Shown here: positions 16,527 through 36,609 of the stretch, piece after piece
Layout: each line of letters opens with the position of its first letter
Position numbering within the stretch: the first letter of the stretch is position 1
From: an uncultured virus (IMG/VR IMGVR_UViG_3300044634_004095)
Taxonomy: Duplodnaviria > Heunggongvirae > Uroviricota > Caudoviricetes
Length of the DNA stretch: 64,000 nt
Direction: 5' to 3' (one strand)
Virus record (IMG/VR): IMGVR_UViG_3300044634_004095
Translations under genes and position numbers: made by a program
The notes under the pieces: model-generated
The model's input: the letters and a program-made list of their open reading frames with translations, nothing else
What the model was told of the DNA's origin: nothing
The model's database searches: none

Positions 16527-16528
16527 GA

Positions 16529-17898: not shown

Positions 17899-18089
17899 AG
17901 TGAGCCTTTCTAGTAATTTACATTATCCTGAGTATTGTTTTTAAGCAAAAGATTCACCTATTACATTATCCTTGAGTAAACGATTCTGCTACCTGTAGAG
18001 CAAAACTTTATTTATGAACACTAACAGTGTTAGGGGAAGTCACATTACTAAAGGATAATGTAACTCCCCCTACCAACTGCTGGAGAGGT

Positions 18090-19625
18090 TTACGGCATAG
18101 GTAAATTACCCATGTGCGCTTTCCATGTTTGCTTAAACTGATAAGGATAAACAGTTTGGGCTTTGCCACCATTCGCCAACTTTGACAACTGGATTAACGC
18201 TTCCTCAATGTGAGGCACGATAATATAGTTATGCTTATTGGCGTATGTTAGACACTGCATGGAAAGTAGTTCATGGAAGCCATCGTTTTTTCCGCAAACT
18301 CCACCATCCGTGATCCACACCAACGGAGAAGTTTTGTGTTTTTGATTTTCTACTCCCCAAACTATTGCTGGGTAGTCAACTCCATTGCCATAGCCATAGT
18401 CAATGCCTGATAGTGATTCCACCATTTTGCCTTTGTCAGCAACAACCCATAAGTTAGAACCCTTGTCATTGTTCCTGTCGCTGTAAATAGCAACAGTACA
18501 GCCAGGTGCGTAACTGATAATTTTTTCTATCTGTTCTTCAGTGAATGACATGGAGCCACTTCCATCAATGATTACCATGCCACCGCTGCCCTTTATCTTT
18601 TTGTCAAAAACCCTCATTGCTGGGTCTGTGAGTAGTCGGTGCATACGACGGGGGCGACGACCCATATTTGTAGCAATGCGCTTTTTACCGATAGTGCCTT
18701 TCAGCATTTTTGGTAATGGCACACGCTCTACTCGTAACTCTGCCCACGATGGGACTCCACCAGCACTAACTGGAGAAATGTTACCGAGAGGGTTTCCGTC
18801 TTTCTTGGCTTCCGTGTAGTCACCCTTATTCCCAATGCCTGACTTCTTCTCTACATCATCCTTTGGTAACGAGCCACTGCTAGGAACACCCTTTGGGGCT
18901 GGTGGTGGTGGGGGTGGTGGTGGGAAAGAAGCAATCCTGTCAACCCATTCCGCAATTCGTTCGGTCTGAGCAAAACCAACAGGCTCTAATCCACCATGTT
19001 CACGAGTATCGCCAAGACTCGTGTATTTGCTGGATTTTTTCATTTCCTTTAATGCTTTCTTGCTTATCGCCAGTAGAGAATCTCCCCAATGACGATTATG
19101 CCTGCGAACACCATTAAGGAAAGGCTTTAGCCCATTCGTGTTAGTCGCTGCGATAGTCATGGCAACTGCTCCTGCCCAATCTCCCGTCTTGGAAAGACGT
19201 TCTCCTGTTGCTAGTTCAGAGCCATTGATTAGTGATTCCTTGACTGGAATGCCGACAGATTCACATAGGAAGTTCACACGAAGTTCCTCAACAACTCTCA
19301 TGGCCTGCTCTGAAGCAATGCCACGAGAAATGAAGTTACTAAACTGCTCAGGGGTCGGTGAGATTTTGCTGTGCATTAGTTCGTGAGCCCGAACAGCACG
19401 ACTGTAGTCGTCATCAGCAAATGGAGCGTACATAACTCTGTTGCCAATATCTGTTCTTGGTTCTCCCGAAATAGCACGACAATCCTCAACTTGCCAAACT
19501 TCGTGAGCAATATCTTTTCTGCCAATTATCGTAGGTTCGGCTTTCGCCGTTCCCACACTCACGGAATCGCTGGAGTGTGGGAACGGTTTGCCACCGCTAC
19601 TTTTTGTTGAGTTAAGGGTTGTCAT
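18090..19625 (-). CDS. VWA-domain protein with N-terminal HExxH metallopeptidase-like region (CobT/MoxR partner)
   Basis: AHELMH; IIDGSGSM (MIDAS DxSxS); WITDG; poly-Pro linker. Confidence 0.8.
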   Translation of the reverse strand: MTTLNSTKSSGGKPFPHSSDSVSVGTAKAEPTIIGRKDIAHEVWQVEDCRAISGEPRTDIGNRVMYAPFADDDYSRAVRAHELMHSKISPTPEQFSNFISRGIASEQAMRVVEELRVNFLCESVGIPVKESLINGSELATGERLSKTGDWAGAVAMTIAATNTNGLKPFLNGVRRHNRHWGDSLLAISKKALKEMKKSSKYTSLGDTREHGGLEPVGFAQTERIAEWVDRIASFPPPPPPPPAPKGVPSSGSLPKDDVEKKSGIGNKGDYTEAKKDGNPLGNISPVSAGGVPSWAELRVERVPLPKMLKGTIGKKRIATNMGRRPRRMHRLLTDPAMRVFDKKIKGSGGMVIIDGSGSMSFTEEQIEKIISYAPGCTVAIYSDRNNDKGSNLWVVADKGKMVESLSGIDYGYGNGVDYPAIVWGVENQKHKTSPLVWITDGGVCGKNDGFHELLSMQCLTYANKHNYIIVPHIEEALIQLSKLANGGKAQTVYPYQFKQTWKAHMGNLPMP

Positions 19626-20350
19626 CAGGAAACTCCGTCCACTGAAAATGCGTCAAGGATTTGCTTTGCACGACGACCGAATGTGAGTTCACACGCACGT
19701 TCCATGCCGACAGATTTGCGCAATTTGTCGAGAGCAAGAAATGCTCGCAAAGAGATTCTGTCGTCGCCAGCGTCAGCCATGCGAACTGCGTATTTACGCA
19801 AGTCAGACGAAAGACGAAGTAGAGCAGTTGGGTGCGGAGCGTCAATACGGATACGAATTGGGAAACGGTCTGCCAACGCTGTTGGGAGTTCTCCCATATT
19901 CTCAATGTTCGTTGTCATGATCGCTGAGAATCCTTCAGACGGTTTGAGTACATCGCCAGTTTCGGGATGCTCAAATGATGCTGATTCAGGTGAGTCAAGC
20001 ATGGCGAGAAGCGTTGCGAAAACGTCGCCACCTGCCTTGTCAATTTCGTCAACGATCAAGCGACCGCCATTAACGCCGTTGCCTTTCCATGCTTTGAGAG
20101 CAGAACCATCAAGCCACTGGAAGCCACCATGCTTAGAAGGCATGAATCCACCAGTAACGTCCATGTTCGTCATGTCCTCTGTGCAAACAAGACGAAATGC
20201 TCCTGCTTCTACATTGCCCATGCTCATTCCTGCATAAGTCTTTCCGATACCGCTTGGTCCGAAAAGAATTATTCTGTCAATTCCTGCCTCTAGGCATTCG
20301 TTAAATGCTTTCCAGCATTCGGGTAGTGTGTTGTCTGTGGTTGTAACCAT
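19625..20350 (-). CDS. MoxR-type AAA+ ATPase (CobS/CbbQ/NirQ-like)
   Basis: GPSGIGKT Walker A, LIVDEID Walker B, ALADRF. Confidence 0.85.
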   Translation of the reverse strand: MVTTTDNTLPECWKAFNECLEAGIDRIILFGPSGIGKTYAGMSMGNVEAGAFRLVCTEDMTNMDVTGGFMPSKHGGFQWLDGSALKAWKGNGVNGGRLIVDEIDKAGGDVFATLLAMLDSPESASFEHPETGDVLKPSEGFSAIMTTNIENMGELPTALADRFPIRIRIDAPHPTALLRLSSDLRKYAVRMADAGDDRISLRAFLALDKLRKSVGMERACELTFGRRAKQILDAFSVDGVS

Positions 20351-20749
20351 TGTCTAGTCTCCTCTAGTAGTTGGGATGGATTACTTAGTCAGATTAACAT
20401 GGCAGGGACAGACTGTTAATTAAATTGAGTGTGAGTGAAAGCAGTTCTTACATCATCCTTTAGTAACGGCGACCCTTTCCCCCACCGTCAATCTCTACCC
20501 GTGAGGAACAGTGAGAGAGAACCACATAATTTTTTTGCAAATTATTTTTCTTACATTATCCCAGCATGCCCCCGACAGAGACGAATTGATGTTGCTTGCG
20601 TGTGCGGGTTGGAGCCCCGGGCTCTGCACGCGTAGCGGGGCTTACACTGAGCTCGATTTATGGATGTTGCATTATCCTTTAGTAAGCGAATTTACATTAT
20701 CCTTTAGTAACAAGACGGCCGTTGTAAAGGATAATGTAGAGCCGAATCA

Positions 20750-21229
20750 TCACTCACGCTCTGGTGGGCAAGTTGCTTCGTAGAGACCATTCTTTATCTT
20801 CTTATAGTGGAGAGACTCCTTGATGTACCCTAAGGTTGTCTGATACGAGAACCCAGCGACCTCAACAAGTTGGTCTATGGAGAACTGCTCTCCTACATGG
20901 TCTTGTGCAAACTGCTCAAAAGCTGACCACTTGTCTCGTCGCTTCTCGGGCTTCTCGCTCTCATCACTGACAGAATGTCCAGTGAATCCATCTACTATAT
21001 ATTTTGCGATGTCGTCGGGAACGCCGTAGGTGCGTAGGAAATGCAATGGGTGACGGGTGCTTCCTTCACGCTGCCAAATGAGCAATACGTCCATTCCACG
21101 AACGGTCTCGGTGGCACGAGTGCTTTCATCTTTCGGAACTGAAAATGCATCTTTATATTTTTTTACAAGTTTTTGCCATAAGCCTTTATGGACTTCCAAT
21201 ACGAGTTCGGGGGTGATGGTCGTTTGCAT
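20750..21229 (-). CDS. hypothetical protein, possible C-terminal wHTH
   Basis: 159-aa ORF; start lies within a box A copy. Confidence 0.6.
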   Translation of the reverse strand: MQTTITPELVLEVHKGLWQKLVKKYKDAFSVPKDESTRATETVRGMDVLLIWQREGSTRHPLHFLRTYGVPDDIAKYIVDGFTGHSVSDESEKPEKRRDKWSAFEQFAQDHVGEQFSIDQLVEVAGFSYQTTLGYIKESLHYKKIKNGLYEATCPPERE

Positions 21230-21408
21230 TATCCTTTAGTGTCACTTTCCGTTTGGCTTGCTGTCGTTAGTAGTATTCGTAAGTCTAATAATATGTCCAT
21301 TATTACCGTTGCTGATACTGTCTCGCGGTTCGCACATTCCGCGAGAGCAGTATCAACTATGGCACATGAACGCTCAATCCATCGTGGGATATCACGCTCA
21401 GTCATTGC

Positions 21409-22128
21409 TTATTCGCCGTTTTTTTCTTTTTTGCGCTTTGGTGCATCACGTAATTTGCTTGTGTATCCACGAGCGACGGTGGCAAAACGAGTGAACATGA
21501 CAAATGAAATTATGGTTTGGGCAAGTTTTCCCATTTCAATTTCCTCTAATTCTTTTGCTCCGTAATTCTCAAATCCCAGCAACTCACTCATTGTGGAAAT
21601 TCCCTCGTCAAATACAGGAACACCAAAATCGTCATACTTGTATGGAGCGATTACCGTGTAGAGATTACGACATTCCCAATCAACGGCAGTGACCATTAGT
21701 GTCTCTCTCACTTCACTAAATGGGTTTTCCCGAAAATCTTTTTCAAGACCGCCCCCCTGTATCTGTCCAGCAACGATTGAATTCTCGGCAGGGCTAGTAT
21801 AACCCTCTGCAATAATTGCAATAAATGAAAATTCCTTAGCAGGCAAATGCTTTACTATGTCTCCAATGCAATCGTAAATGTCATCACGATGAATAAGCGG
21901 GAGTACAGCAACCTTGTAGGGCTTGCTTGTGTCGTTCTCGTGCTGAAATTCCATAGCCTCGTCAAAGGCTTCATCGCTTTCCTCTGTGCTAACAAAACCA
22001 ATCATCATGACAGACGGGTTGTCCTGCATTGCTTCTTCTTTGCACATTTCTGTTTTTGCGAAGATAGACCTATGCATGAATTCTTCGCACATAGTCTGCA
22101 TATCTAGTACCGTTGGTTGAATGTCCAT
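21409..22128 (-). CDS. hypothetical protein
   Basis: AAGGAG SD, 239 aa. Confidence 0.65.
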   Translation of the reverse strand: MDIQPTVLDMQTMCEEFMHRSIFAKTEMCKEEAMQDNPSVMMIGFVSTEESDEAFDEAMEFQHENDTSKPYKVAVLPLIHRDDIYDCIGDIVKHLPAKEFSFIAIIAEGYTSPAENSIVAGQIQGGGLEKDFRENPFSEVRETLMVTAVDWECRNLYTVIAPYKYDDFGVPVFDEGISTMSELLGFENYGAKELEEIEMGKLAQTIISFVMFTRFATVARGYTSKLRDAPKRKKEKNGE

Positions 22129-22170
22129 TTTATTCTCCTTGTTTAGTAGGTTGTATTAAGTCTCTTATTT

Positions 22171-22302
22171 CTATTCTTCTTCGTAATCTTCGTAATCGGC
22201 ATAATCTGGATTCTGACTGTATAATTTTTCTGCCCAATAAGCGTCGTCAGCACGTTCTTCTGCTGGGTGACCGCAACATGGTCTATCTTCGCAACTGCAC
22301 AT
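22171..22302 (-). CDS. 43-aa Cys-motif acidic microprotein (not in ORF track)
   Basis: MCSCEDRPCCGHPAEERADDAYWAEKLYSQNPDYADYEDYEEE; GAAAGGAG SD and promoter at 22333-22361. Confidence 0.6.
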   Translation of the reverse strand: MCSCEDRPCCGHPAEERADDAYWAEKLYSQNPDYADYEDYEEE

Positions 22303-22386
22303 TTGATTCTCCTTTCGTAGTGGGTTGTTTTTAGTGTATCAGCAATGGTACAGATAAGCGACTTTACATTATCCTTTAGTAACCGA

Positions 22387-22614
22387 TTAATTTGCCAGCA
22401 TGACATTGGGCTCCAAATTGAGAGCGTGACAGAGTGAAATAAAACTTTCCAAACTTGGCGAGTAATGTTCGTTCTCTATTCTGTTAATTGTTTTCCTATC
22501 AAGACCTGCTAGTTCGGCAAGTTCGCCCTGAGATAATCCCCGAAGTGATCGCTCTTCTTTTAGTCTTGCTGGAAAAATCTTTTCTACTATTGTTTTGGTA
22601 TTGCGTGTAGTCAT
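22387..22614 (-). CDS. XRE-family helix-turn-helix regulator
   Basis: RLKEERSLRGLSQGELAELAGLDRKTINRIEN; promoter TTGTGA-17-TACAGT at 22649-22677. Confidence 0.9.
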   Translation of the reverse strand: MTTRNTKTIVEKIFPARLKEERSLRGLSQGELAELAGLDRKTINRIENEHYSPSLESFISLCHALNLEPNVMLAN

Positions 22615-22866
22615 AATTGTTTTCCTTTCTTTGAGTACCGCAGGTGGAACTGTACCTACACAGGTTCTCAATCACAACCCTTTCCGCCACCGTCAAAAGC
22701 CAATAGGGGAATAGCGAGTGTAAAACTTGGCGCATTATCCCAACACGCCCCCGCAGCGACATTACCTAAATACGCCCCCATTCGACAAAAGCGCGGCGAG
22801 CAGGTTGAAGCCCCGCGGCCCTCCCTGCCGTAGCGGGGCTTATTCCGGCAAAAGTTACATTATCCT

Positions 22867-23190
22867 TTAGATAGGAATTGCATGAGCTAGACGAGCGTCT
22901 ACGATCTCGACACCATCTACGGGAGCAGACCACATGCGATGGACTATTGTCCAAAAACTTGGAACGGTGTAGGCAATCTCATCTCGTGACACTCCGTGCG
23001 AATCAAAACCCTCTTCCGTGCCAAACCGCGAAATAGAGACATATTCGGTGGCGGTTACATTATCCTTCAGTAACAGGCAGTGAGCCCCAACGAGTATTTC
23101 CCGACGAGCGATGCCGCTAATGAAGGAAAAGAATAAGATGATAGTGCTCCAAATCAGAGCAAATGGATTCGTGTTGTCTTTCTCGTTCAT
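22867..23190 (-). CDS. hypothetical protein carrying an in-frame box A copy (LKDNV)
   Basis: Operonic spacing with upstream gene; N-terminal TM. Confidence 0.5.
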   Translation of the reverse strand: MNEKDNTNPFALIWSTIILFFSFISGIARREILVGAHCLLLKDNVTATEYVSISRFGTEEGFDSHGVSRDEIAYTVPSFWTIVHRMWSAPVDGVEIVDARLAHAIPI

Positions 23191-23191
23191 G

Positions 23192-23644
23192 TCACCTAAC
23201 CCTTCTTACTTCTGGTTCGTCTTGAACCTTGATCCAATTTGGCTCTGGCTCATTCCACGTGAAGAAGTTGATGATGTCGTTATAGACGTGAAGGACCATT
23301 AGTCCACCCTTGCTGATGATGTAGACGTAATCGCACCACGAATCTTGATAATTTGCAGGCGTATACCATTCATTAGGGTTGCCTTGTTCCTCGTTGCCAG
23401 CAATACCATAGCCTTCTACAACTTCCCAGCGAGATTCCTCTGGCTCCTCGTTTGGCTGCCACGGCTTGAGAGTAGACCAGTAGAAGTGGTCGTCTACGAG
23501 AGTTTTCACTGCTTTATCGTAGCCGTCACGTTGTACAATTTCCCAAATGCTCTTGCCTTGATGTGCTGGATACCCATCCCAATGGGCATAGCGCCCCTTC
23601 CACGAGTCTCCATCTTGCTTTGCAATGATGCTTCTAGTCCCCAT
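23192..23644 (-). CDS. hypothetical phage protein
   Basis: MGTRSII...YAHWDGYP; GGAG SD. Confidence 0.7.
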   Translation of the reverse strand: MGTRSIIAKQDGDSWKGRYAHWDGYPAHQGKSIWEIVQRDGYDKAVKTLVDDHFYWSTLKPWQPNEEPEESRWEVVEGYGIAGNEEQGNPNEWYTPANYQDSWCDYVYIISKGGLMVLHVYNDIINFFTWNEPEPNWIKVQDEPEVRRVR

Positions 23645-23829
23645 TACACTCCCTCGCTTTCAGATACATCCCAGGGAATATCCCAGTTGTGACTTCCGTC
23701 TAGGTCTTTGGACTTCAGTTCGTCGTCTGTGAGTTTGTAGTAAGCCTCTAGTGCGGACTCTTTGTCTTCTGCCTCAACTTCATAAGAGTGTGAGATGTCT
23801 TCACTAACTGAAACAATAAACTTTTTCAT
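23644..23829 (-). CDS. hypothetical protein
   Basis: Follows promoter at 23862; acidic EVEAEDKESA. Confidence 0.6.
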   Translation of the reverse strand: MKKFIVSVSEDISHSYEVEAEDKESALEAYYKLTDDELKSKDLDGSHNWDIPWDVSESEGV

Positions 23830-24177
23830 TTTTTCTCTTTTCTTTTCTAGTAGGTAATTAAAATATACCAGTGCTGTTACACATAAGCAACTCTTCCGCC
23901 ACCGTCAATTGTTACCGAGCTCAAAAAAGTAAAATATTTTGCAAATAATTAAATAACATTATCTCAATACGACCCCGCATGTATCTGCCCCCGAGCAATG
24001 AGGTGGCCGCCGACCTAAGCCCCGGCGTCGACCCGACTTCGGCGGGGCTCATACCGCCAATCGCTTACATTATCCTTTAGTGATGAGTGCGTTACATTAT
24101 CCTTCAGCAACGAGCGCATGAGAACCTATACCAAAGGATAATGTAGAGGGTTACATTATCCTTTGGTAATCGGCGGG

Positions 24178-24663
24178 CTAGTCGTCGGTAGGTTCACCGC
24201 TGGGGATCTCTCCAGTGGTTAGCCATGAGTACATTTCATCACTGGACAGTGAGACAACGGTAGGGCTAGAGTTCAGCGCCTTCTCTGCTTCCTCTTTGAT
24301 AATCTCTGTCATGATCTCGGACAGTGCGAGGTGGGCAGAGATAGAAGCAAACTCAGGTGCTAGATATTTTTCGGGAACGTCGTAACTCTCTCCGTCGTAG
24401 TAGCCCTTAGCATTGAGTCCACCGACGAGAACAACATCACCAACCAGTGGGCGACTAAACATAATGGAAGCCATTACGTTTGCTGGAAGCCCGATGAGCA
24501 AGCCTTCATCGTGAACGTAGCCGACCAAATCATCAACGTCTTTATGAGTCACTGTGTCAATGTAGCCACCTACAGCGTCACGTATAGTCGGGTATTCATT
24601 ATCTTTCTCTAGTTCTAACGGCAAGACCTCGCCTGTCGTTTTAAGTAGTAATGCCTTTACCAT
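24178..24663 (-). CDS. DUF3846-like protein
   Basis: IRDAVGGYID...VHDEGLLIGLPAN...LVGDVVLVG. Confidence 0.7.
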   Translation of the reverse strand: MVKALLLKTTGEVLPLELEKDNEYPTIRDAVGGYIDTVTHKDVDDLVGYVHDEGLLIGLPANVMASIMFSRPLVGDVVLVGGLNAKGYYDGESYDVPEKYLAPEFASISAHLALSEIMTEIIKEEAEKALNSSPTVVSLSSDEMYSWLTTGEIPSGEPTDD

Positions 24664-24757
24664 TTCTGACCCCTTTCGGTCTCTGTTTAACTTATTTACA
24701 TTATCCTTTAGTAATTGGTGGGATCGCCATAACGACGACCCCACCAACTAGGCGAGA

Positions 24758-25366
24758 TTATTTCATCACTTCAGCGAGGTGGGTCTCTATGAAGTCGGTT
24801 GTCCACTCGCCCCAATGCTCGTCTCGGCTTCCGTATATTCCTGCGTCAATACTGCGAGCAACATCGGTTCTAATCTCAAAGACGGTAGGCACGTTTCGCA
24901 AAACCGTTGCAACGTCTTTGACGGTCAGTGCGTTGGCTTTCTGATACAAGACCACGCAAGCGTCGTAGAGGTGATCGGGTGGGATCATTGGGAACGCTAT
25001 TGACGCTGCCCTAATGCTCAGGTACTCGTTGCGAACTACTTGGACACGTAGGTCGGGTAACCCAAATCCATATTGACGGGTCATTTCCATTCCAGCGTCA
25101 ATGACTACGAAATCGTAATCGCCAATGCTTAACATACCGTTTAATTCATTAGGCGTTACGCCCTTGACGGTGATGCCGTAATGTCCTTCATTCTCTCGGA
25201 ACGTATTTACGGTTAGACCGAGCAACGCTGTGCAATCGTCGTTCTTTGATGGGTCAAGTAAGAGAACTCGCTCAGGAGATTTCTTACCCAATGCCAATGC
25301 AATGGAACAGGCGACGGTCGTTGTCCCGACTCCACCCTTTTGCGCTGTTACTTCTATGACCTTCAT
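24758..25366 (-). CDS. ParA/MinD/CpaE-like P-loop protein
   Basis: QKGGVGTTT deviant Walker A, RVLLLD, YDFVVIDAG. Confidence 0.75.
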   Translation of the reverse strand: MKVIEVTAQKGGVGTTTVACSIALALGKKSPERVLLLDPSKNDDCTALLGLTVNTFRENEGHYGITVKGVTPNELNGMLSIGDYDFVVIDAGMEMTRQYGFGLPDLRVQVVRNEYLSIRAASIAFPMIPPDHLYDACVVLYQKANALTVKDVATVLRNVPTVFEIRTDVARSIDAGIYGSRDEHWGEWTTDFIETHLAEVMK

Positions 25367-25488
25367 TTCTATACCCCTTTACGGTAATGGCGGATTTGCC
25401 ATATCATTACTGTACCACGCTAGGGACAGACTAGCGTTTTACATTATCCTTTAGTAGTGGGGGCAGGTTTTAACCCACCCCCAACTAA

Positions 25489-25911: not shown

Positions 25912-26245
25912 TTCTAGTACCTCTGTTCTTGTTGGTTATGGGTTACCCCATAACCTTACAAGACGGGGAACAGATTTGCAATACTCTTGACAATCTTTTT
26001 TGCATTATCTCAATCCGCCCCTGATAGCCCTTTCCGCCACCGTCAATTACTACAAGGTTCAGCAAAAATGTTCAGCAAATGTTTAATTGTTTGGAAATCG
26101 TGAAATCTGCATTATCCCAACACGCCCCCGACCATGAGAGCCTGCGTGGCGGTGTGAGCCCCGGCCTCGACCCGTGTTCGGCGGGGCTCTTATCAGATTA
26201 GTGTCATCTAATCGCTAATCTGTACCTTGTTGGGTATTGTTGTGC

Positions 26246-26485: not shown

Positions 26486-26506
26486 TCGCACTATCCTGGA
26501 TAGTCG

Positions 26507-26555
26507 GTGGCTTGCTCTCGTCGGGAGAGCAAGCCACTTTACATTATCCTTTAGT
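26507..26555 (+). terminator. GC hairpin fused to box A
   Basis: GTGGCTTGCTCTC/GAGAGCAAGCCAC stem then TTTACATTATCC; near copy at about 35662. Confidence 0.6.
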
Positions 26556-26801
26556 GAGAACGAGCGAGCCACTTACATTATCCTTTAGTAAGAATGATGT
26601 AGATTATGGGCTATGGTATTCACTGAGAAATTGAATAAAGTACTTGACCTCATTTCCGCAGCAGATAGTTTGCTAGACGAAGCCCGTAATGCTATTGCCG
26701 TTGTTCGGCGTGGCAGGCTTTTTTTGGTTTCCAAAAACTAAAGGATAATGCAAAATGGGGGGGCAGGCTTTCGCCCACCCCCCCACTAGGAACTCAATCG
26801 T

Positions 26802-27209: not shown

Positions 27210-27492
27210 TTTTTCTCCTTGTTACTTCTAGTAGGTGGGTAACAAGATAAGTGTACTGCACAGGGTACAGATACTCAATACTTTACATTATGCCAACACG
27301 CCCCCGACTGGAGAGGTTGAGCGACGACGGACAGAGCCCCGGCATCTCGCCGACTTTTGCGGGGCTTCGATGGGCAGTCGTTTACATTATCCTTTAGTAA
27401 AAAATGGGGGGGGACTCTCAGTACTGGTGGGTACTGAGAGTCCCTAACTAAAGGATAATGCAGAGGGTTACATTATCCTTTAGTAACAACCG

Positions 27493-27957: not shown

Positions 27958-28284
27958 ATTTCCCTTTCATATGTGTCGTTGGTGACATTCTTACTGTACC
28001 TCATAGGGGACAGATTAGCAATTTGCATTATCCTTTAGTAGTGGGGCTATCCGCCACCGTCAAAGATTAGGGGACAACGTGACTCCGCTCAAAGTCACAG
28101 CCCTCTAGATGGTGAGAAACTTCTTTAATCGGATGACATTATCGCAACGCGCCCCCGACGATGAGTTGGCTGGAGTCTGGCTTGGGGCGACGGACAGAGC
28201 CCCGCTGCTCACCGCTTCAGCCGGGGCTTCGTCCCGATAAAGGTCATTTAATCGCCAACCTGTCCCCGTAGTGGTACGTTGTGA

Positions 28285-28545: not shown

Positions 28546-28724
28546 GTCGCGCCAAACTTTGCGAACGTGCCGAGAACGTCTCTCGGCACGTTCGCTCTAT
28601 TAGTTTGATCAAAGCCCCGGCCGAGGGCGAGCTCAGCGGGGCTCCAACCGCATTCGCGTCATCTAATCGCTAATCTGTCCCTGTCGTGGTATGTTGTGAA
28701 TGTAGTCAAGCGAAAGGAAAAGTA

Positions 28725-28994
28725 ATGCAACAATCACATTCAAGAGTCACAGAGTTAGAGCTGGGGGCTCCCGTCGTAGTGGGGCATAGGCTCCTACTCT
28801 GGAAGCGTTCATTCTTCTACGCAAACCGTGTATCATACATTGTGTTCTGCAAAGCAGACCCCGATGAGGTTCACGGCTACGCTGTATGGCGAGTAGAGAA
28901 AAACGCTCACGGCGAATACTACGCCGAGACAGGCTACTACTTCGCCGAGTCCGATCTAGTCGAAGCCATACAGGCATACGACGCTAGAGATTAA
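28725..28994 (+). CDS. hypothetical protein (similar to 34047-34361)
   Basis: GAAAGG SD, promoter at 28667. Confidence 0.6.
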   Translation: MQQSHSRVTELELGAPVVVGHRLLLWKRSFFYANRVSYIVFCKADPDEVHGYAVWRVEKNAHGEYYAETGYYFAESDLVEAIQAYDARD

Positions 28995-29643: not shown

Positions 29644-30262
29644 TGTTGCCCCTTTCATGGGTGTAGTGGTTATTCATATTGTACCTTATCGGGTACAGAC
29701 TAGGGTCGTTTTACATTATCCTTTAGTGTTCGGGGTCGTCTGTCTGATGTTCGGGATCGTCTGTCCCTGCTTCGTAGGCGTGCGAGAGCCAGCAAAATGA
29801 TGCACAGACAGGGCATACGACTACCTGCGGATAGTTCACGAGAACTCCATGCTCGTCTAAAACCTGAGAGCGTGTGAGTGGGTGTAGGGAACGGCAGTGT
29901 GAAAAATAGTAAGTCTTCATATTACTTACGAGAAACCTTCGGTAAAAAGATGTCAAGGAAAAATGATTAAAACATTTCCTCAAGAACGTGACATCACGAA
30001 AGTTCCTTCCGCCACCGTCAATAATTTTGAGTCGTTCGGGGAACGCAGTAAATTTGCATTATCGCAACGCGCCCCCGACAGTGATCCAGATTTTGCAAAA
30101 AACAGGAGCACGGACAAAGCCCCGCGTGAGACCGTTCCTGCCGGGGCTCTTTCGGATCATCCTCGAAAGCTGACTTTACGCGGCAATTCCGGGTTAGCGT
30201 CATTTAATCGCCAATCTGTACCTAGCGAGGTATGCTGCAAGCAACCCAACGAAAGGAAAGTA

Positions 30263-30607
30263 ATGAGAAAAATCAACTATGACACGATCACCGTTTTCGA
30301 CGATTGCGCCGAAGCCGATGAGTGGGAAAAAGAAAACGACAGAGAATGGATCCCTGTCGGCTGCATTGACACCGAGATTCCCTACCGCTGGGAAGGCTCA
30401 CAAGCGAAGATAGAACTGCATGCTGACCTGAATCAGTACTGGTGCGATGGCACCGTTCCTGGGTCTACTCGTGACTGTCTCATCAAGGATTGGAAAGTGG
30501 TTGTTTGGAAAGACAAGAACAACGACAACGACTACGAACTCCACTACGCAGAAAACGAACAAGACGGCAATGAAATCCTAGAGAGTCTCGCTGTTACATT
30601 ATCCTAG
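30263..30607 (+). CDS. hypothetical protein
   Basis: GAAAGGAAAG SD, promoter at 30208; upstream extension in the ORF track is repeat DNA. Confidence 0.65.
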   Translation: MRKINYDTITVFDDCAEADEWEKENDREWIPVGCIDTEIPYRWEGSQAKIELHADLNQYWCDGTVPGSTRDCLIKDWKVVVWKDKNNDNDYELHYAENEQDGNEILESLAVTLS

Positions 30608-30970
30608 AGTATGTATTGAGGCTCGCTCCCGTGTGGGGGCGAGCCACTTACATTATCCTTTAGTGTTAGCGGCGAGCCTGACCCCGGGGGCTTTCCGCCA
30701 CCGTCAAATAGTACAAGCAGGTATGACATCATTCTGAGCTCATGGCTGAAAGATGCACATTATCTGAACACGCCCCCGATGACGCAAATAAAAAGTTTGA
30801 CGCGAGAAGCCAGACAAAGCCCCGCGGCTCACCGCCTTCAGCGGGGCTTCGATGCTCGAGACTTTACATTATCCTTCAGTGAAAGAAGCTCGGGAATCCC
30901 AGCGCGGGGGCGCGCTGGGATTCCCCTAACCAAAGGATAATGTGGGGAGTACATTATCCTTTGGTGTTAA

Positions 30971-31399
30971 TCATTCAATCGGGAACGACTGAGCCTTTTT
31001 GATTAGCACGAGTAGTAGCGATTCTCTAGTGGGGACTAGATCCCTAATGAGTTCTAACGTTTCCGTGTGAAACTGATTGAATGACTTTTCACTGAAACGC
31101 GCAACGCCTACTTGGTTGTGAAACCTTGTAGACGGGAACTGCTGCACGTTGAATGGTTCCCAAATAGTGACGGTGAAACCGGCTGCGGGCTGCCACCAAA
31201 GCAAGCGCATAGTGGCGGTGTACTGTTTGCGCTTTGGGTCGTGGGTGAACTCTAGTTCTACTTGCTCGCCTGCCATTGAATTAGTGCCGCTGTATCGCTG
31301 ATCTAGTACTGGCGATCGCCACACGTATTTAATGCTACGGTCACCAATGATCGGTTGTGGGAACTTCAGGGTAATTTCTGGGTTTTGGGTTGTAGTCAT
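30971..31399 (-). CDS. hypothetical protein, leaderless
   Basis: ATG 6 nt after -10 TACTCT. Confidence 0.65.
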   Translation of the reverse strand: MTTTQNPEITLKFPQPIIGDRSIKYVWRSPVLDQRYSGTNSMAGEQVELEFTHDPKRKQYTATMRLLWWQPAAGFTVTIWEPFNVQQFPSTRFHNQVGVARFSEKSFNQFHTETLELIRDLVPTRESLLLVLIKKAQSFPIE

Positions 31400-31641
31400 A
31401 CCCAAAGAGTACTAGCAAGGGTACAGATTAGTGAATGTTTGACATTATCTCAGCACGCCCCCGACAGGTGAATGAGCAAGAGCAGGTTCAAGCCCCGCGG
31501 CCAGACGCTTGTAGCGGGGCTTCGATGTGAAACATTGTCAGTCTCGGTCGGGGGCGCATTTGGATAATGTTGCTTTAATTAACAATTTGATACTGACTAA
31601 CTATAATGACAACGTAAGCAACTACTAGAAGGAGTACTACT

Positions 31642-31938
31642 GTGAACGATATTTATTGCCCAGTATGTGGCGAACCGTGGGACAACGACACGCTACATGA
31701 ATACGCCGAGGAATATGAAACAACCTATAGAGCGACCTACAAATTATTTTTTTCCGATGGTTGCGCTGTGGCGTTCAAAGAATGGGACATAGCGTGTGAA
31801 CGCCCTGAGGGTGGTTCATCACGAGCCTTGTTTTCGTCATTGTTGGCAGAGATGCTAGGCGATGACGTGGACGGAATAATTAGCGAAATGCAGGACGCTG
31901 AGTTGCTTGGCTTACTGAACGACAATAGTAAAGGATAA
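31642..31938 (+). CDS. hypothetical zinc-binding protein
   Basis: CPVCGEPWD; AAGGAG SD; promoter TTAACA-17-TATAAT. Confidence 0.65.
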   Translation: MNDIYCPVCGEPWDNDTLHEYAEEYETTYRATYKLFFSDGCAVAFKEWDIACERPEGGSSRALFSSLLAEMLGDDVDGIISEMQDAELLGLLNDNSKG

Positions 31939-31943
31939 TGTAA

Positions 31944-32255
31944 ATGCTAACAATAAACGAAAATAACCTATTATTGAACGGCGATATTGTTGCCACGCTA
32001 CCAAACACAAGCGCACGGCAAGTGCTATTACGCGCATTGCTTGAAAGCCTATCTAATCGCGATGGCGTATTTCTTGCGCTATCTCACTTAGGGGAAGCGC
32101 GTACTGCTGATATCGCTCATCTTGTTGGCATAGATAGGTCAAATGCTGGCAGGGTTCTAGACAGCCTATTGTTAGAGGGAATGGTAAAGGTAGTAAACGA
32201 TTGCAATAAGGCTGGAACGGTAGGGCGACCATCTAGGGTTTGGGCGACCGTTTAA
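31944..32255 (+). CDS. winged-helix DNA-binding protein
   Basis: ARTADIAHLVGIDRSNAGRVLDSLLLEGMV...GRPSRVW. Confidence 0.7.
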   Translation: MLTINENNLLLNGDIVATLPNTSARQVLLRALLESLSNRDGVFLALSHLGEARTADIAHLVGIDRSNAGRVLDSLLLEGMVKVVNDCNKAGTVGRPSRVWATV

Positions 32256-32337
32256 CATTATCCTTTAGTGTGTGCGCGTCTATATTGGCGCGCACACACT
32301 TGAACACTAAAGGATAATGTAAAGAGTACGAAAACTA

Positions 32338-32808
32338 TTATTCGCTCATCGGGTTTGGGGCAATTTCTCCGAATACAGCCTCGTACATTTCTCGCCCTGC
32401 TTTCCACTCGTCCCACGACCCGTCAGATGAGACACGGATACACGACCCGTAAATAACCTTTGCTCTTATTAGTGAGGCGGTTACTACTGCGTCGTATGGC
32501 TTGTAAGCCGTTTTGCAAAATGAGAAATGGTCGGGCTCATCTTTGCGCCACTCGGGTTGAGTCGGGATAGCGTCCCACCAAAACGACTCGTGCCCATTGT
32601 CGCCGTTTTCATCGCTCACGCCATTAAATGCGAAATAACCCTCAGTACACACGGGCTGAGTGTTGGGTGCACCAAACGCGTCACCTAGTGCAATTCCGTT
32701 TTCTTGTGCATAATCGCAAATTGCTTTTACGTCTAGTCCCAATTTGCCAAACATATAAGCCGACCCTGCGTTATTCATTGGTCGCGAAACATAGTGCGTA
32801 TAGCCCAT
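32338..32808 (-). CDS. hypothetical phage protein
   Basis: MGYTHY...FCKTAYKPYDAVV...SSDG; AAGGAG SD. Confidence 0.7.
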   Translation of the reverse strand: MGYTHYVSRPMNNAGSAYMFGKLGLDVKAICDYAQENGIALGDAFGAPNTQPVCTEGYFAFNGVSDENGDNGHESFWWDAIPTQPEWRKDEPDHFSFCKTAYKPYDAVVTASLIRAKVIYGSCIRVSSDGSWDEWKAGREMYEAVFGEIAPNPMSE

Positions 32809-32895
32809 TTCTTTTCTCCTTGTCTAGTAGTTATTATTAGATTACTTTACGATATTCAGACTAGCGATTAAATTACATTATCCTTTAGTGATAGT

Positions 32896-33168
32896 TCACA
32901 AGTCAGGGTTGAACCAACCCCAAGAACCATCAACGTTAATTACTACGTCCTCGGGCGCTAGGCAGTTGATTAGCGGAACAGCAGTACTATTCCAACTCCA
33001 TGTAAAGTTTGGCTTTAGCGAAATATCGCAAATGGGTTTAGTTTCTCTATTGTCGCTTGTGATTAGTAACGTGGCAAGAACGACGACAACGGAAGTCGCC
33101 AATCCCCATACTATTATTCTTACGAAAGTGCGTAGCGTGTAGTAAGCAGATGACTTTTCATTGTTCAT
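32896..33168 (-). CDS. hypothetical membrane protein
   Basis: One TM; promoter at 33198. Confidence 0.6.
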   Translation of the reverse strand: MNNEKSSAYYTLRTFVRIIVWGLATSVVVVLATLLITSDNRETKPICDISLKPNFTWSWNSTAVPLINCLAPEDVVINVDGSWGWFNPDL

Positions 33169-33416
33169 ACTTTCCCCTTTTTCTAGTAGTTGTTATTAGA
33201 CTACTTGACGCTATTCAGACTAGCGATTAAATGACATTATCTCAACACGCCCCCGACAAGAACAAGCGTGAGAGGTTTCAGCTTAAGCCCCGCAGGCCAG
33301 CCTGTCCCCCGGGGCTCCTACCGGATTCAGCCACAAGCGCATGACTCGAAATTGGCAAGCGCCGTTACTAAAGGATGATGCCGGATTACATCATCCTTTA
33401 GTAACGATTGCTCCTA

Positions 33417-33836
33417 CTAGAGTCCCCGTTCCCTGCGCTGTTGTTCTGTCACAGGGCGCAACGTTGTCTCGCTGCCGGTTGGGGCATCGTGGTGAGATAG
33501 TGAGTATTCAACTCGGTCGGAATAAACCTCATAGTGCATGCGCCATTCACTTCTGACTGTCATGGCTATAAGCATTTCTTCAACTTTGTCTACCTTGAAA
33601 TGTCCGGATATATCGCCGTTCCAAAGTCGCAAATTCTCAACGGACCACCAATCAGTTTCGTTGCTGTGGCGTAGTTCCATTGTTGCCTCTCCGAACTCGG
33701 CTACTGAGTCGCTCCAGCAATAACCAAAACACTCGGATGCTTCTTTATAGTCTCCGGTGTTTTCGTCATAGGCGGTGCAAGTGCATAGGTTGGTTATTTC
33801 TCCGGCTGTGATGAGTGTTTTTTTGGTTGTTGTCAT
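33417..33836 (-). CDS. hypothetical protein, leaderless
   Basis: ATG 6 nt after -10 TAAATT; HHDAPTG. Confidence 0.65.
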   Translation of the reverse strand: MTTTKKTLITAGEITNLCTCTAYDENTGDYKEASECFGYCWSDSVAEFGEATMELRHSNETDWWSVENLRLWNGDISGHFKVDKVEEMLIAMTVRSEWRMHYEVYSDRVEYSLSHHDAPTGSETTLRPVTEQQRRERGL

Positions 33837-34046
33837 GTCTTCAATTTACCATTGAGGGTACAAACTAGCGTTTTTGCATTATCCTTTAGTAATGTTCTTT
33901 TCTCCAAATTTGCAAAACTTCTTTTTTCGTGTAATACAAGTAAAAGTGATAAGGGTAGTCATGAGTCCCATCACAGGGCAAGCGATAAAACCCCGTTTTT
34001 GTTTTTTCTATACTTTTTAGTGTTGGTGTAATTTTTGGCATTGCGC

Positions 34047-34361
34047 TCACCAACCTCCCCGAGCCTCATAGTCTCCAACTGAACGCTCAATTTCATTTGA
34101 CAGAAAATAGTGTCCTGCCTCTGCAAGAAAACCCTCAGGGCGAGCGGAAATAATCCACGTCACGTACTTGTGATATGACCCCCTATTGTTGGACTCACAG
34201 AGTGCAATCCAACTAGAGTAAGTATCCCCAATAACTCTCTCCGTGAGACGCTTGCAACGCAATACGGTGTGATCGGAAATGGACATACCTTTTGCAAGTA
34301 AGTTGAATTCTGCTTGTGTCTGCCCGTTGTGATCGTTAATTGTTTCTAATTCTGTTTGCAT
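34047..34361 (-). CDS. hypothetical protein (similar to 28725-28994)
   Basis: AGGAG SD, promoter at 34398. Confidence 0.65.
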   Translation of the reverse strand: MQTELETINDHNGQTQAEFNLLAKGMSISDHTVLRCKRLTERVIGDTYSSWIALCESNNRGSYHKYVTWIISARPEGFLAEAGHYFLSNEIERSVGDYEARGGW

Positions 34362-34562
34362 TTTTTCTCCTAGCAATTGGTAGTAGGTGTTGTTAGTAAC
34401 GTACCTTGCAGGTAACAGGCTAACTATAAATAAACATTATCGCAACACGCCCCCGATATGATCAGTCTGCGAGCCGGAGGGGAGAAGCCCCGCGTGGGGC
34501 GTGCGAAGCCGGGGCTTTAATGCTCGACAACAGCATTATCCTTGAGTGTCGGCGAGCGGCGC

Positions 34563-34895
34563 TTACCCGTGCCAGTTTTCAGACCGCTCTATGAAGTTGC
34601 GCAAACTTTCCTCGTCGGTCATTTTTTCTTTCTCGCCTTCTTCGATAATCCAACCGAAAACGTCCTGACGTATGGCGCATCGTTCTTCTACTGCTTTCAC
34701 AGCTTGAGCGGGCGTGAGTGCCTTTTCGCCAAAACCACGCAACCCGGCGTCCCATTCCCAACCGAACGACTCAACAAGATCGGCATCGTCGTAGCACTCG
34801 TAGAGCTCTGACTCAAAAAGGTTCTGGGGGTCGCTGTAGAGCGGCATTGCTTTAATTGCGGCGACTATTTCGTCGTGTTGTGGGTGAGTTTTCAT
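34563..34895 (-). CDS. hypothetical protein
   Basis: AAGGAG SD. Confidence 0.65.
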   Translation of the reverse strand: MKTHPQHDEIVAAIKAMPLYSDPQNLFESELYECYDDADLVESFGWEWDAGLRGFGEKALTPAQAVKAVEERCAIRQDVFGWIIEEGEKEKMTDEESLRNFIERSENWHG

Positions 34896-34921
34896 TTCTT
34901 TCTCCTTTTGTTTGGGTTTGT

Positions 34922-35218
34922 TTAATAATTCATTTTGTCAAAAGCGGCGGCGGCGCCTTTAGCCATTGCGTCTTGACGAAAGGCATAGGTCGTGTCAAAC
35001 GCAACCCGCAGAACATTCCGGTGAAGTACTGAGATCTCCTCTTTTTCCAGAACGTCGTAATTTGCATTGTCGCCATACTCGCACTCAAGCACGACTGCCA
35101 CGCTGTGCTTTGTGAGCACGCTTTTAACCTTGACGAACTTAATTTCGCCATTCACTTTTGCGGCGAAAACTACTTTTTTGTTTTTGTCAATAGCGGCGCC
35201 GATGTCCCATACCTTCAT
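34922..35218 (-). CDS. hypothetical protein
   Basis: AAGGAG SD, promoter at 35260. Confidence 0.65.
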   Translation of the reverse strand: MKVWDIGAAIDKNKKVVFAAKVNGEIKFVKVKSVLTKHSVAVVLECEYGDNANYDVLEKEEISVLHRNVLRVAFDTTYAFRQDAMAKGAAAAFDKMNY

Positions 35219-35446
35219 GTTCTTGTCTCCTTGTGTGTGTTGTTCCTGCCGATGACTTAAAAATACCAGCAGGGGTACAGATTAGCGAAAAAGCTACCCT
35301 AATCAGGTTGAGGCGAGGCGAACAAGCCCCGGCTTCGTCCGCGCTCAGCGGGGCTCGCATGGGGTTGGTGTTCTTTTATCGCTAATCTGTACCTGTCATG
35401 ACAGAATAGGAACACGGGGGAAACGCCCTCGGGATTAGGGGAGATT

Positions 35447-35638
35447 ATGCCACTCTGGAAACAAAGAACAGAAGTAGACAAGGGCTACAAAGACATCGTG
35501 CTGAGGGAATTGGGAATAGAACAAGACCCCAAAGACTGGGAGCGCTCAAATTGGGTGATCTTTTTGTTGTGCGCTGGTTTTGACATAGAAACGATTACAA
35601 GGTTTCTAGCAGACGACGGTCGCTTCGTTTACGACTAA
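35447..35638 (+). CDS. hypothetical protein
   Basis: GGAG SD, promoter at 35379. Confidence 0.55.
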   Translation: MPLWKQRTEVDKGYKDIVLRELGIEQDPKDWERSNWVIFLLCAGFDIETITRFLADDGRFVYD

Positions 35639-35762
35639 AAAGATTATCCTAGATAGTTCGGGTGGCTTGCTCTCGTAGGGAGAGCAAGCCACTTTACATT
35701 ATCCTTTAGTAATGGGTCGGGGTTTTCTCCCGACCCATTACGGTCTATTGTCGTAACGACCC

Positions 35763-35984
35763 CTAGTCGTACCACCTAGATGCTGGCAACTCGCACAGTA
35801 GGCAGATCGCGTTTCTTAGTTTTGCGAGAACTCGTGGGCTATGTCTTATTTTTGCAATGTCTGCACTAACTCCGTAAACTTCGCGGAGTTGGTGAACGGT
35901 GAAATCGTTACAGCAATACGAACAGATAAACCCTTCGCTGTCTTTGTCGTAAGCGACCGTCTCTAGATCTTTGTATTCATACAC
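35763..35984 (-). CDS. small zinc-finger protein
   Basis: CSYCC...CLLC; GAGG SD. Confidence 0.5.
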   Translation of the reverse strand: MYEYKDLETVAYDKDSEGFICSYCCNDFTVHQLREVYGVSADIAKIRHSPRVLAKLRNAICLLCELPASRWYD

Positions 35985-36126
35985 AGTTAGTGTTTCCTCT
36001 CTTTATCCTTTAGAGGTTGCTTACCTCTGCTGATCGGACATTCAATAGAAAGAAAAACATCATCGCAATGTTCCCCCGAGTGCGTGATGCATCCACTTCA
36101 CGACAAAGCCCCGCTGTAAACCGGCC

Positions 36127-36609
36127 CTAACGGGTCTCCATGCTTGGGAGAGTCTTCATCGAGCGCAGCTGATGCTTACCTAAGCGCCAAGACTCACGCC
36201 AGCCATTTGGATTGAAAAGGTTCTCGTCTTTTTTGACTTCGTACCCGTAGGCCCATCCGACAAAAAAGAAAACGTTCCCCATGAGTTGTGCAAATATATA
36301 TCGCCTCTGAATGGGGTCGTTGTCTCGGATGATAAGGCCACCACGTGGGTGACTAGTTGCTCGAATCTCATTTTCTCCGTCATCGGGAATTTGGTGAAAC
36401 TCATTTATGGGGTTGTGCCACAGTTTTTCATTGATGCGCGCCCAGGCTAGTTCTGCTCCAGCCCCAACTCTTTCCTGTTGGATTCTCTCGTCCATCGAGC
36501 GATCATATGTTGATGCATGGTTCAGTCCCTGTTTGCCAGACTCGGTTATGCGTAGCCTGACGGCTTTATCAACTTCTGCCCAGTCACTGTCTGTCATTGC
36601 GTATCTCAT
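36127..36609 (-). CDS. hypothetical protein, possible PD-(D/E)xK nuclease fold
   Basis: GAGAELAWAR...PDD...EIRAT. Confidence 0.5.
   Translation of the reverse strand: MRYAMTDSDWAEVDKAVRLRITESGKQGLNHASTYDRSMDERIQQERVGAGAELAWARINEKLWHNPINEFHQIPDDGENEIRATSHPRGGLIIRDNDPIQRRYIFAQLMGNVFFFVGWAYGYEVKKDENLFNPNGWRESWRLGKHQLRSMKTLPSMETR

Follow-up and report, generated by a model that had tools for sequence, protein, structure and literature searches.

What function is served by the short repeated ‘boxes’ that separate the small genes of a ‘cassette field’ (positions 17900–36140) in IMG/VR record IMGVR_UViG_3300044634_004095, a 64,000-nt stretch of DNA (hereafter ‘the window’) from what is roughly a 150-kb tailed phage of lake water? 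An initial annotation of this locus recognised four parts—boxes A, B and C, and a dyad, D—and proposed an undescribed kind of system: either an integron-like array for capturing and shuffling genes, or a scaffold of protein-binding sites governing an early region of the genome. We consider it probable that the boxes are composite promoter–terminator cassettes that double as patches for recombination; a variant of the principle known from T4-type phages as the promoter-early stem-loop, or PeSL. Throughout, we infer promoter, terminator and operator functions, as well as early timing, the host and the proteins that read the boxes.

Counted on the plus strand, all four parts are present at the positions first described for them, and in numbers far beyond chance expectation. 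Within the window, box C (TCCRCCACCGTCAA, up to two mismatches) has 14 matches where 0.52 would be expected, 12 of them on the plus strand; box B (up to three mismatches) has 13 (0.01 expected; 12 on plus); dyad D (AGCCCCG-N14-20-CGGGGCT, exact) has 14 (0.00 expected); and box A (up to three mismatches) has 42 (0.18 expected), of which 32 lie on the plus and 10 on the minus strand. Likewise, the seven complete C-B-D modules (modules 1–4 and 6–8, Table 1) and the B-D modules at 27285, 31442, 33234 and 34434 were all recovered. To these we add a palindromic leader, a box preceding the Shine–Dalgarno (SD) sequence (the ‘pre-SD’ box, CTACTAGAA), a third promoter-like type, and the occurrence of A on both strands.

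The boxes are also confined to one part of the genome. When the window is joined to a 100% identical IMG/VR record (G005) to give a composite of 131,483 bp, 42 of the 43 matches to box A fall inside 16.7–35.7 kb, all 13 matches to box B inside 20.5–34.5 kb, and 13 of the 14 matches to box C inside 13.7–30.7 kb; the boxes being limited to 13.7–35.7 kb of the 131 kb of the window phage. The regional confinement originally claimed holds at this scale, with the amendment that C continues leftwards out of the field as far as 13775 (five copies, Table 1) and that D is also found at 17361. A complete relative (G006; 156,276 bp) behaves in the same way, with 9/9 C′, 12/12 D, 93/94 A-type, 23/23 B-type and 17/18 leader matches inside 90–130 kb. 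Both genomes support the idea of a region-specific system governing a field of small accessory genes. The field itself holds 31 open reading frame (ORF) calls of at least 50 aa (42 of at least 35 aa); both strands are used, as had been noted, albeit with about three quarters of the genes (24/31 of the longer calls) on the minus strand. As most field genes lie on that strand, the boxes are best read as their reverse complements, A′, B′ and C′.

Read in this direction, a module begins after the stop codon of a gene with a GC-rich hairpin or a palindrome of two A boxes, followed by A′ (ACTAAAGGATAATGTAA), a gap of 14–24 nt, D (AAGCCCCG ... CGGGGCTT), a further 27–55 nt, and B′ (CGGGGG-N8-GATAATG). 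In seven modules only, a stretch of 45–85 nt after B′ leads to C′ (TTGACGGTGGYGGAAG, also written TTGACGGTGGYGGA) and then to a further A′ or B′-like box. The module ends with the leader, (a)ATCTGTaCC-N5-6-GGTACAg, then the pre-SD box, the SD sequence and ATG. Eleven minus-strand modules share a stereotyped order and spacing, and an exact D is located 27–55 nt upstream of 12 of the 13 B′ boxes. A′ often adjoins the GC-rich hairpin behind the preceding gene, or itself forms one arm of a palindrome: at five places box A occurs in inverted pairs, generating palindromes of 14–17 bp directly after stop codons, three of which carry an identical variant on both arms—a feature that fits either selection for pairing or origin by inverted duplication. 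A′ and B′ share a GATAATG core and differ upstream of it. Nine of 13 B′ boxes, and 14 of 37 A′ boxes (up to two mismatches), lie no more than 160 nt upstream of a start codon on the same strand, with the leader in between; from this position alone we infer that A′ and B′ are two classes of promoter without a −35 element. The third promoter-like type, GTCATyTAATCGCyAATCTGTaCC, is found at plus-strand genes.

Two simpler explanations of individual parts were considered and rejected. D is not a simple extended hairpin, since its interiors are variable, fold inconsistently and have no consistent upper stem; nor is A′ an SD-AUG-UAA start–stop element, as the A boxes of relatives have no ATG. Other, single-copy A′ loci were set aside as chance matches, eight of ten among the matches listed lying in unrelated low-GC DNA.

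How much of this anatomy is shared? Protein-guided searches identified relatives (among them R1, G006, G008, G009 and G010), with identities to the window phage of ~72% for the helicase and ~57–58% for a 511-aa field protein; three of them (G006, G009 and G010) are complete, at 148–158 kb with terminal repeats. The architecture and orientation of the modules are common to the window phage and to related, WhiB-encoding lake phages of 148–158 kb; C′ and the arms of D are identical between them, and the leader palindrome is also conserved. A 12-mer of C′ is present in 6, 9, 9, 9 and 12 copies in five records, where all 45 copies are clustered and on the same strand within their record (reversed control, 0), and a 16-mer occurs in more than 191 IMG/VR stretches; the box remaining invariant across phages with only 40–80% protein identity. 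The core of the A and B boxes differs by lineage: GGATAATG in the window phage, GTAGATAAcT in R1 and G006, and GTGTAGGTAAGT in G010. The A-type box as a whole reads GAGTAGATAAcT in R1, G008 and G006; in G010, where it reads GGTGTAGGTAAGT, one of its 11-mers has 67 copies in the field. The B-type core follows the same change. Between G006 and G010, orthologous intergenic sequence aligns at ~70–90%, with GAGTAGATAA turned into GTGTAGGTAA at every aligned copy. In summary, C′, D and the leader do not vary within the family, whereas the A/B cores are specific to each lineage and have shifted together at orthologous sites; a shift of this kind, repeated at dozens of sites, is what one would predict from co-evolution with a trans-acting reader.

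As a separate observation, the modules of R1, G008 and G006 (for instance R1 14505–14560, in window-like orientation) carry a second small hairpin after D, the stem of which changes compensatorily between copies (TTGCCC-GAAA-GGGCAA, TTCCC-AAAAA-GGGAA and TTGCTG-AAA-CAGCAG); the window phage showed nothing clearly equivalent.

Gene content and order within the field vary between relatives, as the initial annotation had anticipated. Comparison by reciprocal best hits shows that 8 of 10 adjacencies between the window phage and G006 are broken inside 22.7–36 kb, as against 12 of 77 elsewhere (p=7e-5), with collinear flanks; gene order also differs between R1 and G006. Orthologous genes keep their complete D-B-C modules. 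Only 18–60% of field genes have a homologue in G006. A single event can be followed in G008 and R1 (90.6% nucleotide identity): G008, but not R1, has a unit of 438 nt consisting of a promoter box, leader, ORF of ~70 codons, A palindrome, D and B box, with direct A-box-plus-leader repeats on either side, and the single copy in R1 (15425–15471) aligns to both. The junction of this indel lies in ~46 bp of shared A-box-plus-leader homology, and reads as homologous recombination would be expected to leave it. Further to the right, homology between the same two genomes ends at a D hairpin, upstream of which the genes are unrelated.

Integron arrays likewise consist of small unrelated genes separated by hairpin-capable repeats and vary cassette by cassette; their cassettes are promoterless, each with an attC hairpin, and the integrase is encoded adjacently. 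The field resembles them in its small unrelated genes between hairpin-capable repeats and its cassette-wise variation in content and order, and one might suppose that D or the A-box palindromes are attC-like sites for a dedicated recombinase: many genes have at their 3′ end inverted repeats able to form hairpins; gene order is scrambled, with the flanking boxes accompanying the units that move; and one break in homology falls at D. We regard this as highly improbable. The initial annotation saw no recombinase in the window, and wider searches agree: no tyrosine-recombinase integrase was found among the window proteins; Phage_integrase (PF00589) and Resolvase profiles gave 0 matches in G006, which is complete, and in G005 (PF00589 was positive in 14/14 control genomes, and the Resolvase search was run with positive controls); and Y1_Tnp, for HUH-type Y1 proteins, gave 0 matches in G005 and in the three complete relatives G006, G009 and G010. 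Each unit carries its own promoter-like A′ and B′ boxes, unlike promoterless integron cassettes; the hairpins vary in type; the repeats are oriented and placed as promoters, operators and terminators would be; and the one resolved indel junction sits within ~46 bp of ordinary homology, not at a fixed crossover point. With no integrase found, promoter-like boxes of its own and a junction in ordinary homology, the field is not an integron; the near-conserved gene order of G006 and G010 (see below) also speaks against a capture array.

Lake metagenomes add a view of the same population. In four of them the field is nearly invariant, and the contigs of the four runs show no box-to-box or circular joints; a weak point against site-specific capture, as contigs drop rare variants. 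Of the loose ends of partly fitting lake contigs, 7 of 24 among those listed (with 27 more beyond) lie within 6 nt of the edge of a C box, which suggests that homology with co-occurring relatives starts or stops at C box edges. A blastn comparison of the window with 80 loci around C′ gave weak matches only (no more than 88% identity beyond stretches of ~30 nt centred on C′), with no mosaic joints resolved for the window phage. The sole joint encountered is a 97-nt skip at 19918–20016, inside the AAA_5 ATPase gene, in one contig of one run; its depth is far above that of its surroundings, and it may be another organism's. Of separate note in G008 is an insertion of 129 nt (28602–28731, against R1 20433–20437) that falls precisely where the leader/SD meets the start codon of a conserved gene, and carries a lysine/arginine-rich mini-ORF of ~33 codons.

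The closest described system is the PeSL of the T4-type myoviruses RB49/phi1, T4/PST and KVP40/nt-1 (PMC2839356; PMC4122927). PeSLs are described there as composite early-promoter/stem-loop cassettes in hyperplastic regions, mediating indels, replacements and the formation of mini-circles by homologous recombination; promoter and terminator activity and the mini-circles were shown experimentally. Given that precedent for composite cassettes with modular shuffling, the locus is not, in our opinion, the undescribed kind of system it was first taken for. The points in common are small promoter-plus-stem-loop composites repeated between small, mostly orphan genes in a plastic region, and homologous recombination as the probable mechanism, without a dedicated recombinase. 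A possible further one concerns the indels and replacements that separate close relatives: here, two of about four differences in one pair of genomes have their junctions in the cassettes. Here too, a consensus that is promoter-like by position is tied to a stem-loop and concentrated in a hyperplastic region of small genes. The differences are considerable: our phage has genes for an HK97-fold capsid, a tail tube and WhiB, comes from lake water and probably infects an actinobacterium; its promoter-like boxes have no −35 element and are not canonical sigma-70 sites; its cassettes have more parts (two promoter classes, C′, D with conserved arms, the leader palindrome and the A-box palindromes), three of them family-invariant and set beside lineage-specific, co-varying promoter cores; and they are known from sequence alone, where PeSL activity and mini-circles are experimental.

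Transferred to this locus, the PeSL principle would work as follows. The field would be a plastic region of accessory genes, probably early or concerned with host takeover. D would act as a palindromic hairpin terminating or insulating one unit from the next; B′ and A′ would be two promoter classes, lacking a −35 element and built on one common core; and C′, strand-specific and invariant in the family, would serve as a −35-plus-spacer element at some sites and take an operator-like position at others. The promoter boxes would be followed by the palindromic leader (CTGTACC-N-GGTACAG) and then the ribosome-binding site. We propose that cassettes of 15–150 bp, being repeated dozens of times, act as patches of homology, such that recombination between them would insert, delete, replace and reorder whole gene-plus-cassette units; a reaction that might be carried out by the phage's own Erf-like annealing protein (a weak match, E 1e-6), exonuclease and RuvC-like resolvase.

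The position of C′ deserves separate consideration, as it bears on the second of the two original proposals. In 61 distinct C′ instances drawn from many phages, conservation stops at the limits of the box. Seventeen of the 61 have a TAnnnT hexamer at a spacer of 16–19 nt after it (14 at exactly 17 nt), compared with 1–2 of 61 at control offsets (Fisher p=2.6e-4), so that C′ would act as a −35-plus-spacer element at roughly one site in four. Other copies are found 2–12 nt downstream of an A-type box, or on the start codon of a DUF1599-domain gene, where the bases of the box are invariant even at synonymous positions. (The possibility that C′ encodes a conserved leader peptide, TTG ACG GTG GTG GAA ..., was rejected, as third codon positions are invariant and the frames, of 8–16 codons, end as chance predicts.) C′ is asymmetric, 14–17 bp long and present in 9–12 copies per genome, with an orientation tied to the direction of transcription. 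Within the C′ cluster is encoded a 130-aa protein with an HA domain and a sigma-70-region-4-like helix-turn-helix (HTH), highly conserved across the phage family (278 homologue clusters at 55–85% identity), with a recognition helix that does not vary in any of 36 aligned homologues; our guess is that it reads C′ or another of the invariant boxes. A fold search with its model (pLDDT 85) gave no PDB match at E≤0.001, with only the C-terminal HTH matched locally.

Might C′, the leader palindrome and the A-box palindromes then be, in the main, sites for phage-encoded DNA-binding proteins that switch the whole field, with shuffling as a by-product? Such a scaffold would account for a family-invariant, strand-oriented box that recurs in three settings (at the −35 position, a short way past an A-type box, and over a start codon); for a leader that forms a 7+7 palindrome between promoter and SD and in which the sequence itself, not just the pairing, is conserved across lineages; and for the presence of the HA-HTH gene amongst the C′ copies. 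It would also find a parallel in the asymmetric, orientation-dependent operator/‘stoperator’ sites of Cluster A mycobacteriophages (L5, TipsytheTRex; PMC9283540), which are likewise short, present in many copies, oriented with transcription and located at promoters (−35) and at short intergenic or leader positions, in phages of what is probably the same host phylum. Unlike stoperators, which are spread over the genome and bound by the repressor of prophage immunity, C′ is limited to one region of ~17 kb; it is invariant across phages of 40–80% protein identity; and protein binding to it is putative. The HA-HTH protein has no whole-protein fold match. Silencing of the kind practised by temperate phages is unlikely, given that no integrase was found and no immunity-type repressor identified in the phage, and a scaffold leaves the GATAAT-type cores and the hairpins unexplained. 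As the principal function of the boxes we think it unlikely; it may hold for box C and the leader palindrome, and is compatible with, and not exclusive of, the promoter–terminator cassettes that we favour.

Several observations weigh against those cassettes, and concern both their transcriptional and their recombinational roles. Among the sequencing runs that carry the field no RNA run is listed, so the promoter and terminator functions are assigned by position. Neither sigma-70-type −35/−10 pairs (19 found, 23.9 expected) nor canonical hairpin-plus-T-run terminators (22 found, 18.9 expected) are enriched in the field, and D is not called as a terminator; in the sole match overlapping a D copy (30126–30109), the partner of that copy's 3′ arm is sequence further downstream and not the 5′ arm of the same D. 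The core shared by A and B admits no single consistent alignment to a TAnnnT hexamer across lineages, and a −10 hexamer at the spacing of a promoter is missing from 44 of the 61 C′ instances. As many as 23 of the 37 A′ boxes have no same-strand start within 160 nt; five are directed straight into D; and an antisense A′ lies within 70 nt after the stop in 12 of 45 genes. Boxes that point into D, sit in palindromes or run antisense after stops are not explained by a simple promoter model: antisense transcription, promoter-bound polymerase acting as a roadblock, and sites for dimeric proteins are possible roles. As to recombination, the order of G006 and G010 is nearly the same (2 breaks in 36 adjacencies in the field, 6 in 107 outside), and shuffling would have to be episodic. 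The 40–60-kb region is as poor in homologues as the field, so variable gene content is not unique to the latter. As to whether changes fall precisely at the boxes, in G008 and R1 this is true of only two of about four structural differences (the A-box-plus-leader indel and the break at D), the other two lying inside an operon or between SD and start codon. Finally, gene calls come from a heuristic ORF caller written for this analysis.

The antisense and D-directed A′ boxes raise a further possibility, namely that they are small-RNA or antisense units: A′ followed by D would yield short hairpin RNAs, and the antisense A′ boxes behind stops (in G010, antisense B-type boxes) would give rise to gene-silencing antisense RNAs. 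In keeping with this, a sense A′ precedes D by 14–24 nt, a near-constant spacing, in 5 of the 14 D hairpins; the frequency of antisense A′ after stops has been given above; and in G010 a reverse-complement B-type box is found, as read from the sequence, upstream of D in 7 of 12 D copies among those listed, in addition to a sense one downstream. Rfam, on the other side, returned 0 matches in 12–38 kb, the interiors of D are variable, the runs listed include no RNA, and the A-box palindromes could equally be terminators or protein-binding sites. Taken together, we find this explanation improbable. Three copies of a related arrangement were seen, in which a strong hairpin (AGTGGCTTGCTCTCCC...GAGAGCAAGCCAC or a variant) and then a further A-like box come directly after A′ (26530–26589, 30615–30664 and 35650–35710), each behind the stop of a plus-strand gene; possible identities are small-RNA units, or a promoter joined to a bidirectional terminator.

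If the composite cassettes that we favour are indeed promoters, what reads them? As the cores fit no one TAnnnT register, the host's primary sigma factor is, on this reading of the sequence, an unlikely candidate. A Sigma70_r2 profile search gave 0 matches; a search for T7-type RNA polymerase was made in which the control had no match anywhere; and PDB sequence searches with two giant proteins of the phage (4563 and 2520 aa) returned no RNA-polymerase-like domain, only a PolC-type exonuclease and a weak hydrolase. One could imagine a transcription code autonomous to the phage, in which the A/B boxes are read via a phage-encoded specificity factor (sigma-like, or one that retargets RNA polymerase, possibly together with the phage WhiB proteins) whose DNA preference drifted between lineages, so that 40–90 sites followed suit, GATAA giving way to GGTAA where positions are orthologous, and in which invariant C′, D and leader are read by equally invariant phage proteins such as HA-HTH; the cassettes then constituting the gene-exchange platform of an abundant family of lake actinophages. 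We put this forward tentatively, as a possibility that is more doubtful than the cassettes themselves.

Were our interpretation correct, cassette-mediated modular shuffling would extend from the T4-type phages of coliforms and vibrios to an unrelated, uncultivated family of freshwater phages of ~150 kb. The field would provide a map of transcription units, candidate promoters, operators and their readers in phages whose hosts are hard to grow, and the invariant C′, D and leader, side by side with lineage-specific cores, would amount to a natural experiment in the co-evolution of cis-elements and trans-acting factors. In practical terms, the boxes should serve to locate the accessory region when metagenomic contigs of the family are searched, as markers that are both exact and strand-specific.

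One other known class of element resembles a part of the module. Cluster K mycobacteriophages reportedly have ‘start-associated sequences’, a short conserved motif just upstream of many start codons, which recall the pre-SD box (CTACTAGAA) and the leader; the difference being that ours belong to a multi-part cassette with hairpins and promoter-like boxes, in one region. Among the literature matches listed, in a search of limited coverage, no phage paper contained the literal motif strings.

Table 1. Positions of the cassette field, its modules and associated features in the window.
Feature	Coordinates	Strand	Components and remarks
WhiB-like transcription factor	11771–12121	+	Left border of field; G006 and G010, both complete, have a homologue there too
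C′ boxes left of field	13775–17237	−	13775–13788; 14128–14141; 15702–15715 (on start of DUF1599-domain gene); 16725–16738; 17224–17237
HA-HTH protein, 130 aa (HA domain and sigma-70-region-4-like HTH; two-domain, DNA-binding)	16849–17241	+	Inside C′ cluster; highly conserved across phage family
Further D copies without B′	17361–17389; 35325–35355		Exact D matches
Cassette field	17900–36140	−	Single genes or short operons bracketed by repeated boxes
Module 1	20448–20739	−	Upstream of AAA_5 ATPase/511-aa operon; antisense A 20723–20739; A′ 20692–20708, 20667–20683; D 20613–20642; B′ 20554–20574; C′ 20478–20491; A′ 20448–20464
Module 2	22683–22871	−	Upstream of XRE-type HTH gene; A′ 22855–22871; D 22809–22840; B′ 22733–22753; C′ 22683–22696
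Module 3	23895–24167	−	A-box palindrome 24130–24167; A′ 24092–24108, 24065–24081; D 24018–24049; B′ 23957–23977; C′ 23895–23908
Module 4	26003–26188	−	D 26157–26188; B′ 26110–26130; C′ 26033–26046; second B′-like box 26003–26023; leader 25967–25975
Module 5	27286–27484	−	A-box palindrome 27447–27484; GC hairpin and T-run ~27400–27445; A′ 27382–27398; D 27335–27366; B′ 27286–27306
Module 6	28007–28228	−	D 28198–28228; B′ 28137–28157; C′ 28050–28063; A′ 28023–28039; leader 28007–28015
D hairpin without B′	28613–28643		Followed on plus strand by third promoter-like type and leader
Module 7	30008–30148	−	D 30118–30148; B′ 30057–30077; C′ 30008–30021; overlaps 5′ part of a plus-strand ORF call, probably over-extended
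Module 8	30594–30965	−	A-box palindrome 30929–30965; GC hairpin; A′ 30864–30880; D 30818–30848; B′ 30758–30778; C′ 30694–30707; A′ 30648–30664, then hairpin; A′ 30594–30610
Symmetric module	31443–31569	both	Minus-strand B′ 31443–31463; D 31491–31521; plus-strand B′ 31549–31569; divergent promoter-like boxes around D
B-D module	33235–33404	−	B′ 33235–33255; D 33286–33316; A-box palindrome ~33364–33404, variant GATGAT/CATCATC on both arms
B-D module	34435–34516	−	B′ 34435–34455; D 34486–34516

Four IMG/VR records that share the A′ and B′ boxes are 100% identical to the window, being fragments of the same phage, and are hence of no use for synteny. Within the field, a Pfam scan of the 42 ORF calls (17.9–36.1 kb) left 34 without a match at E≤0.01, with six above the curated cut-off; an XRE-type HTH gene lies at 22387–22671 and a winged-HTH gene at 31944–32255. 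Against 50,697 phage records, a megablast search with the field and a tblastn search with the 511-aa protein found no match, and the window helicase found only distant actinophage matches (no more than 35% identity). The field is present in 20 lake-water metagenome runs; between lake metagenomes, the length of a poly-G/C run at 27400–27410, beside a terminator-like hairpin, differs (+GG in one run, +GGG in another).

PHROGs and Pfam matches elsewhere in the phage include a portal, large terminase, HK97-type capsid protein and tail tube protein, along with a primase, helicase, ribonucleotide reductase, thymidylate synthase and ParB-like proteins, and three giant ORFs measure 4563, 3206 and 2520 aa. 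Two WhiB-like regulators are encoded. The WhiB Pfam family has matches in 4/4 related records; of the 14 control genomes, Corynebacterium alone has one. Published work treats WhiB as a marker of freshwater actinophages (PMC10914622). As WhiB-type factors are encoded by the phage, we take its host to be, most likely, an actinobacterium.

A number of features outside the field may also be recorded. The ORF of 4563 aa (L063; minus strand, composite 61977–75671, of which 61977–64000 lies in the window) has only GNAT-type acetyltransferase and DnaQ/PolC-type exonuclease matches, which leave the greater part of its length without assignment. That of 3206 aa (L064; G005 74635–84258, minus strand) encodes a polyvalent protein that opens with a prohead serine protease (S78) domain and continues with ArdC-N, MPTase-PolyVal zincin, P-loop and UvrD-helicase domains, and looks like a multi-enzyme protein delivered with the capsid. 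An auxiliary-metabolism cluster (window 46997–59200 and L060) comprises a Nol-like carbamoyltransferase, a ferredoxin-like protein, two 2OG-Fe(II) oxygenases, a ThyX-type thymidylate synthase, a thioredoxin-domain protein, tRNA-Met and tRNA-Ile(TAT), and a PAPS-reductase (cysH-like) gene is located near the ParB-like genes.

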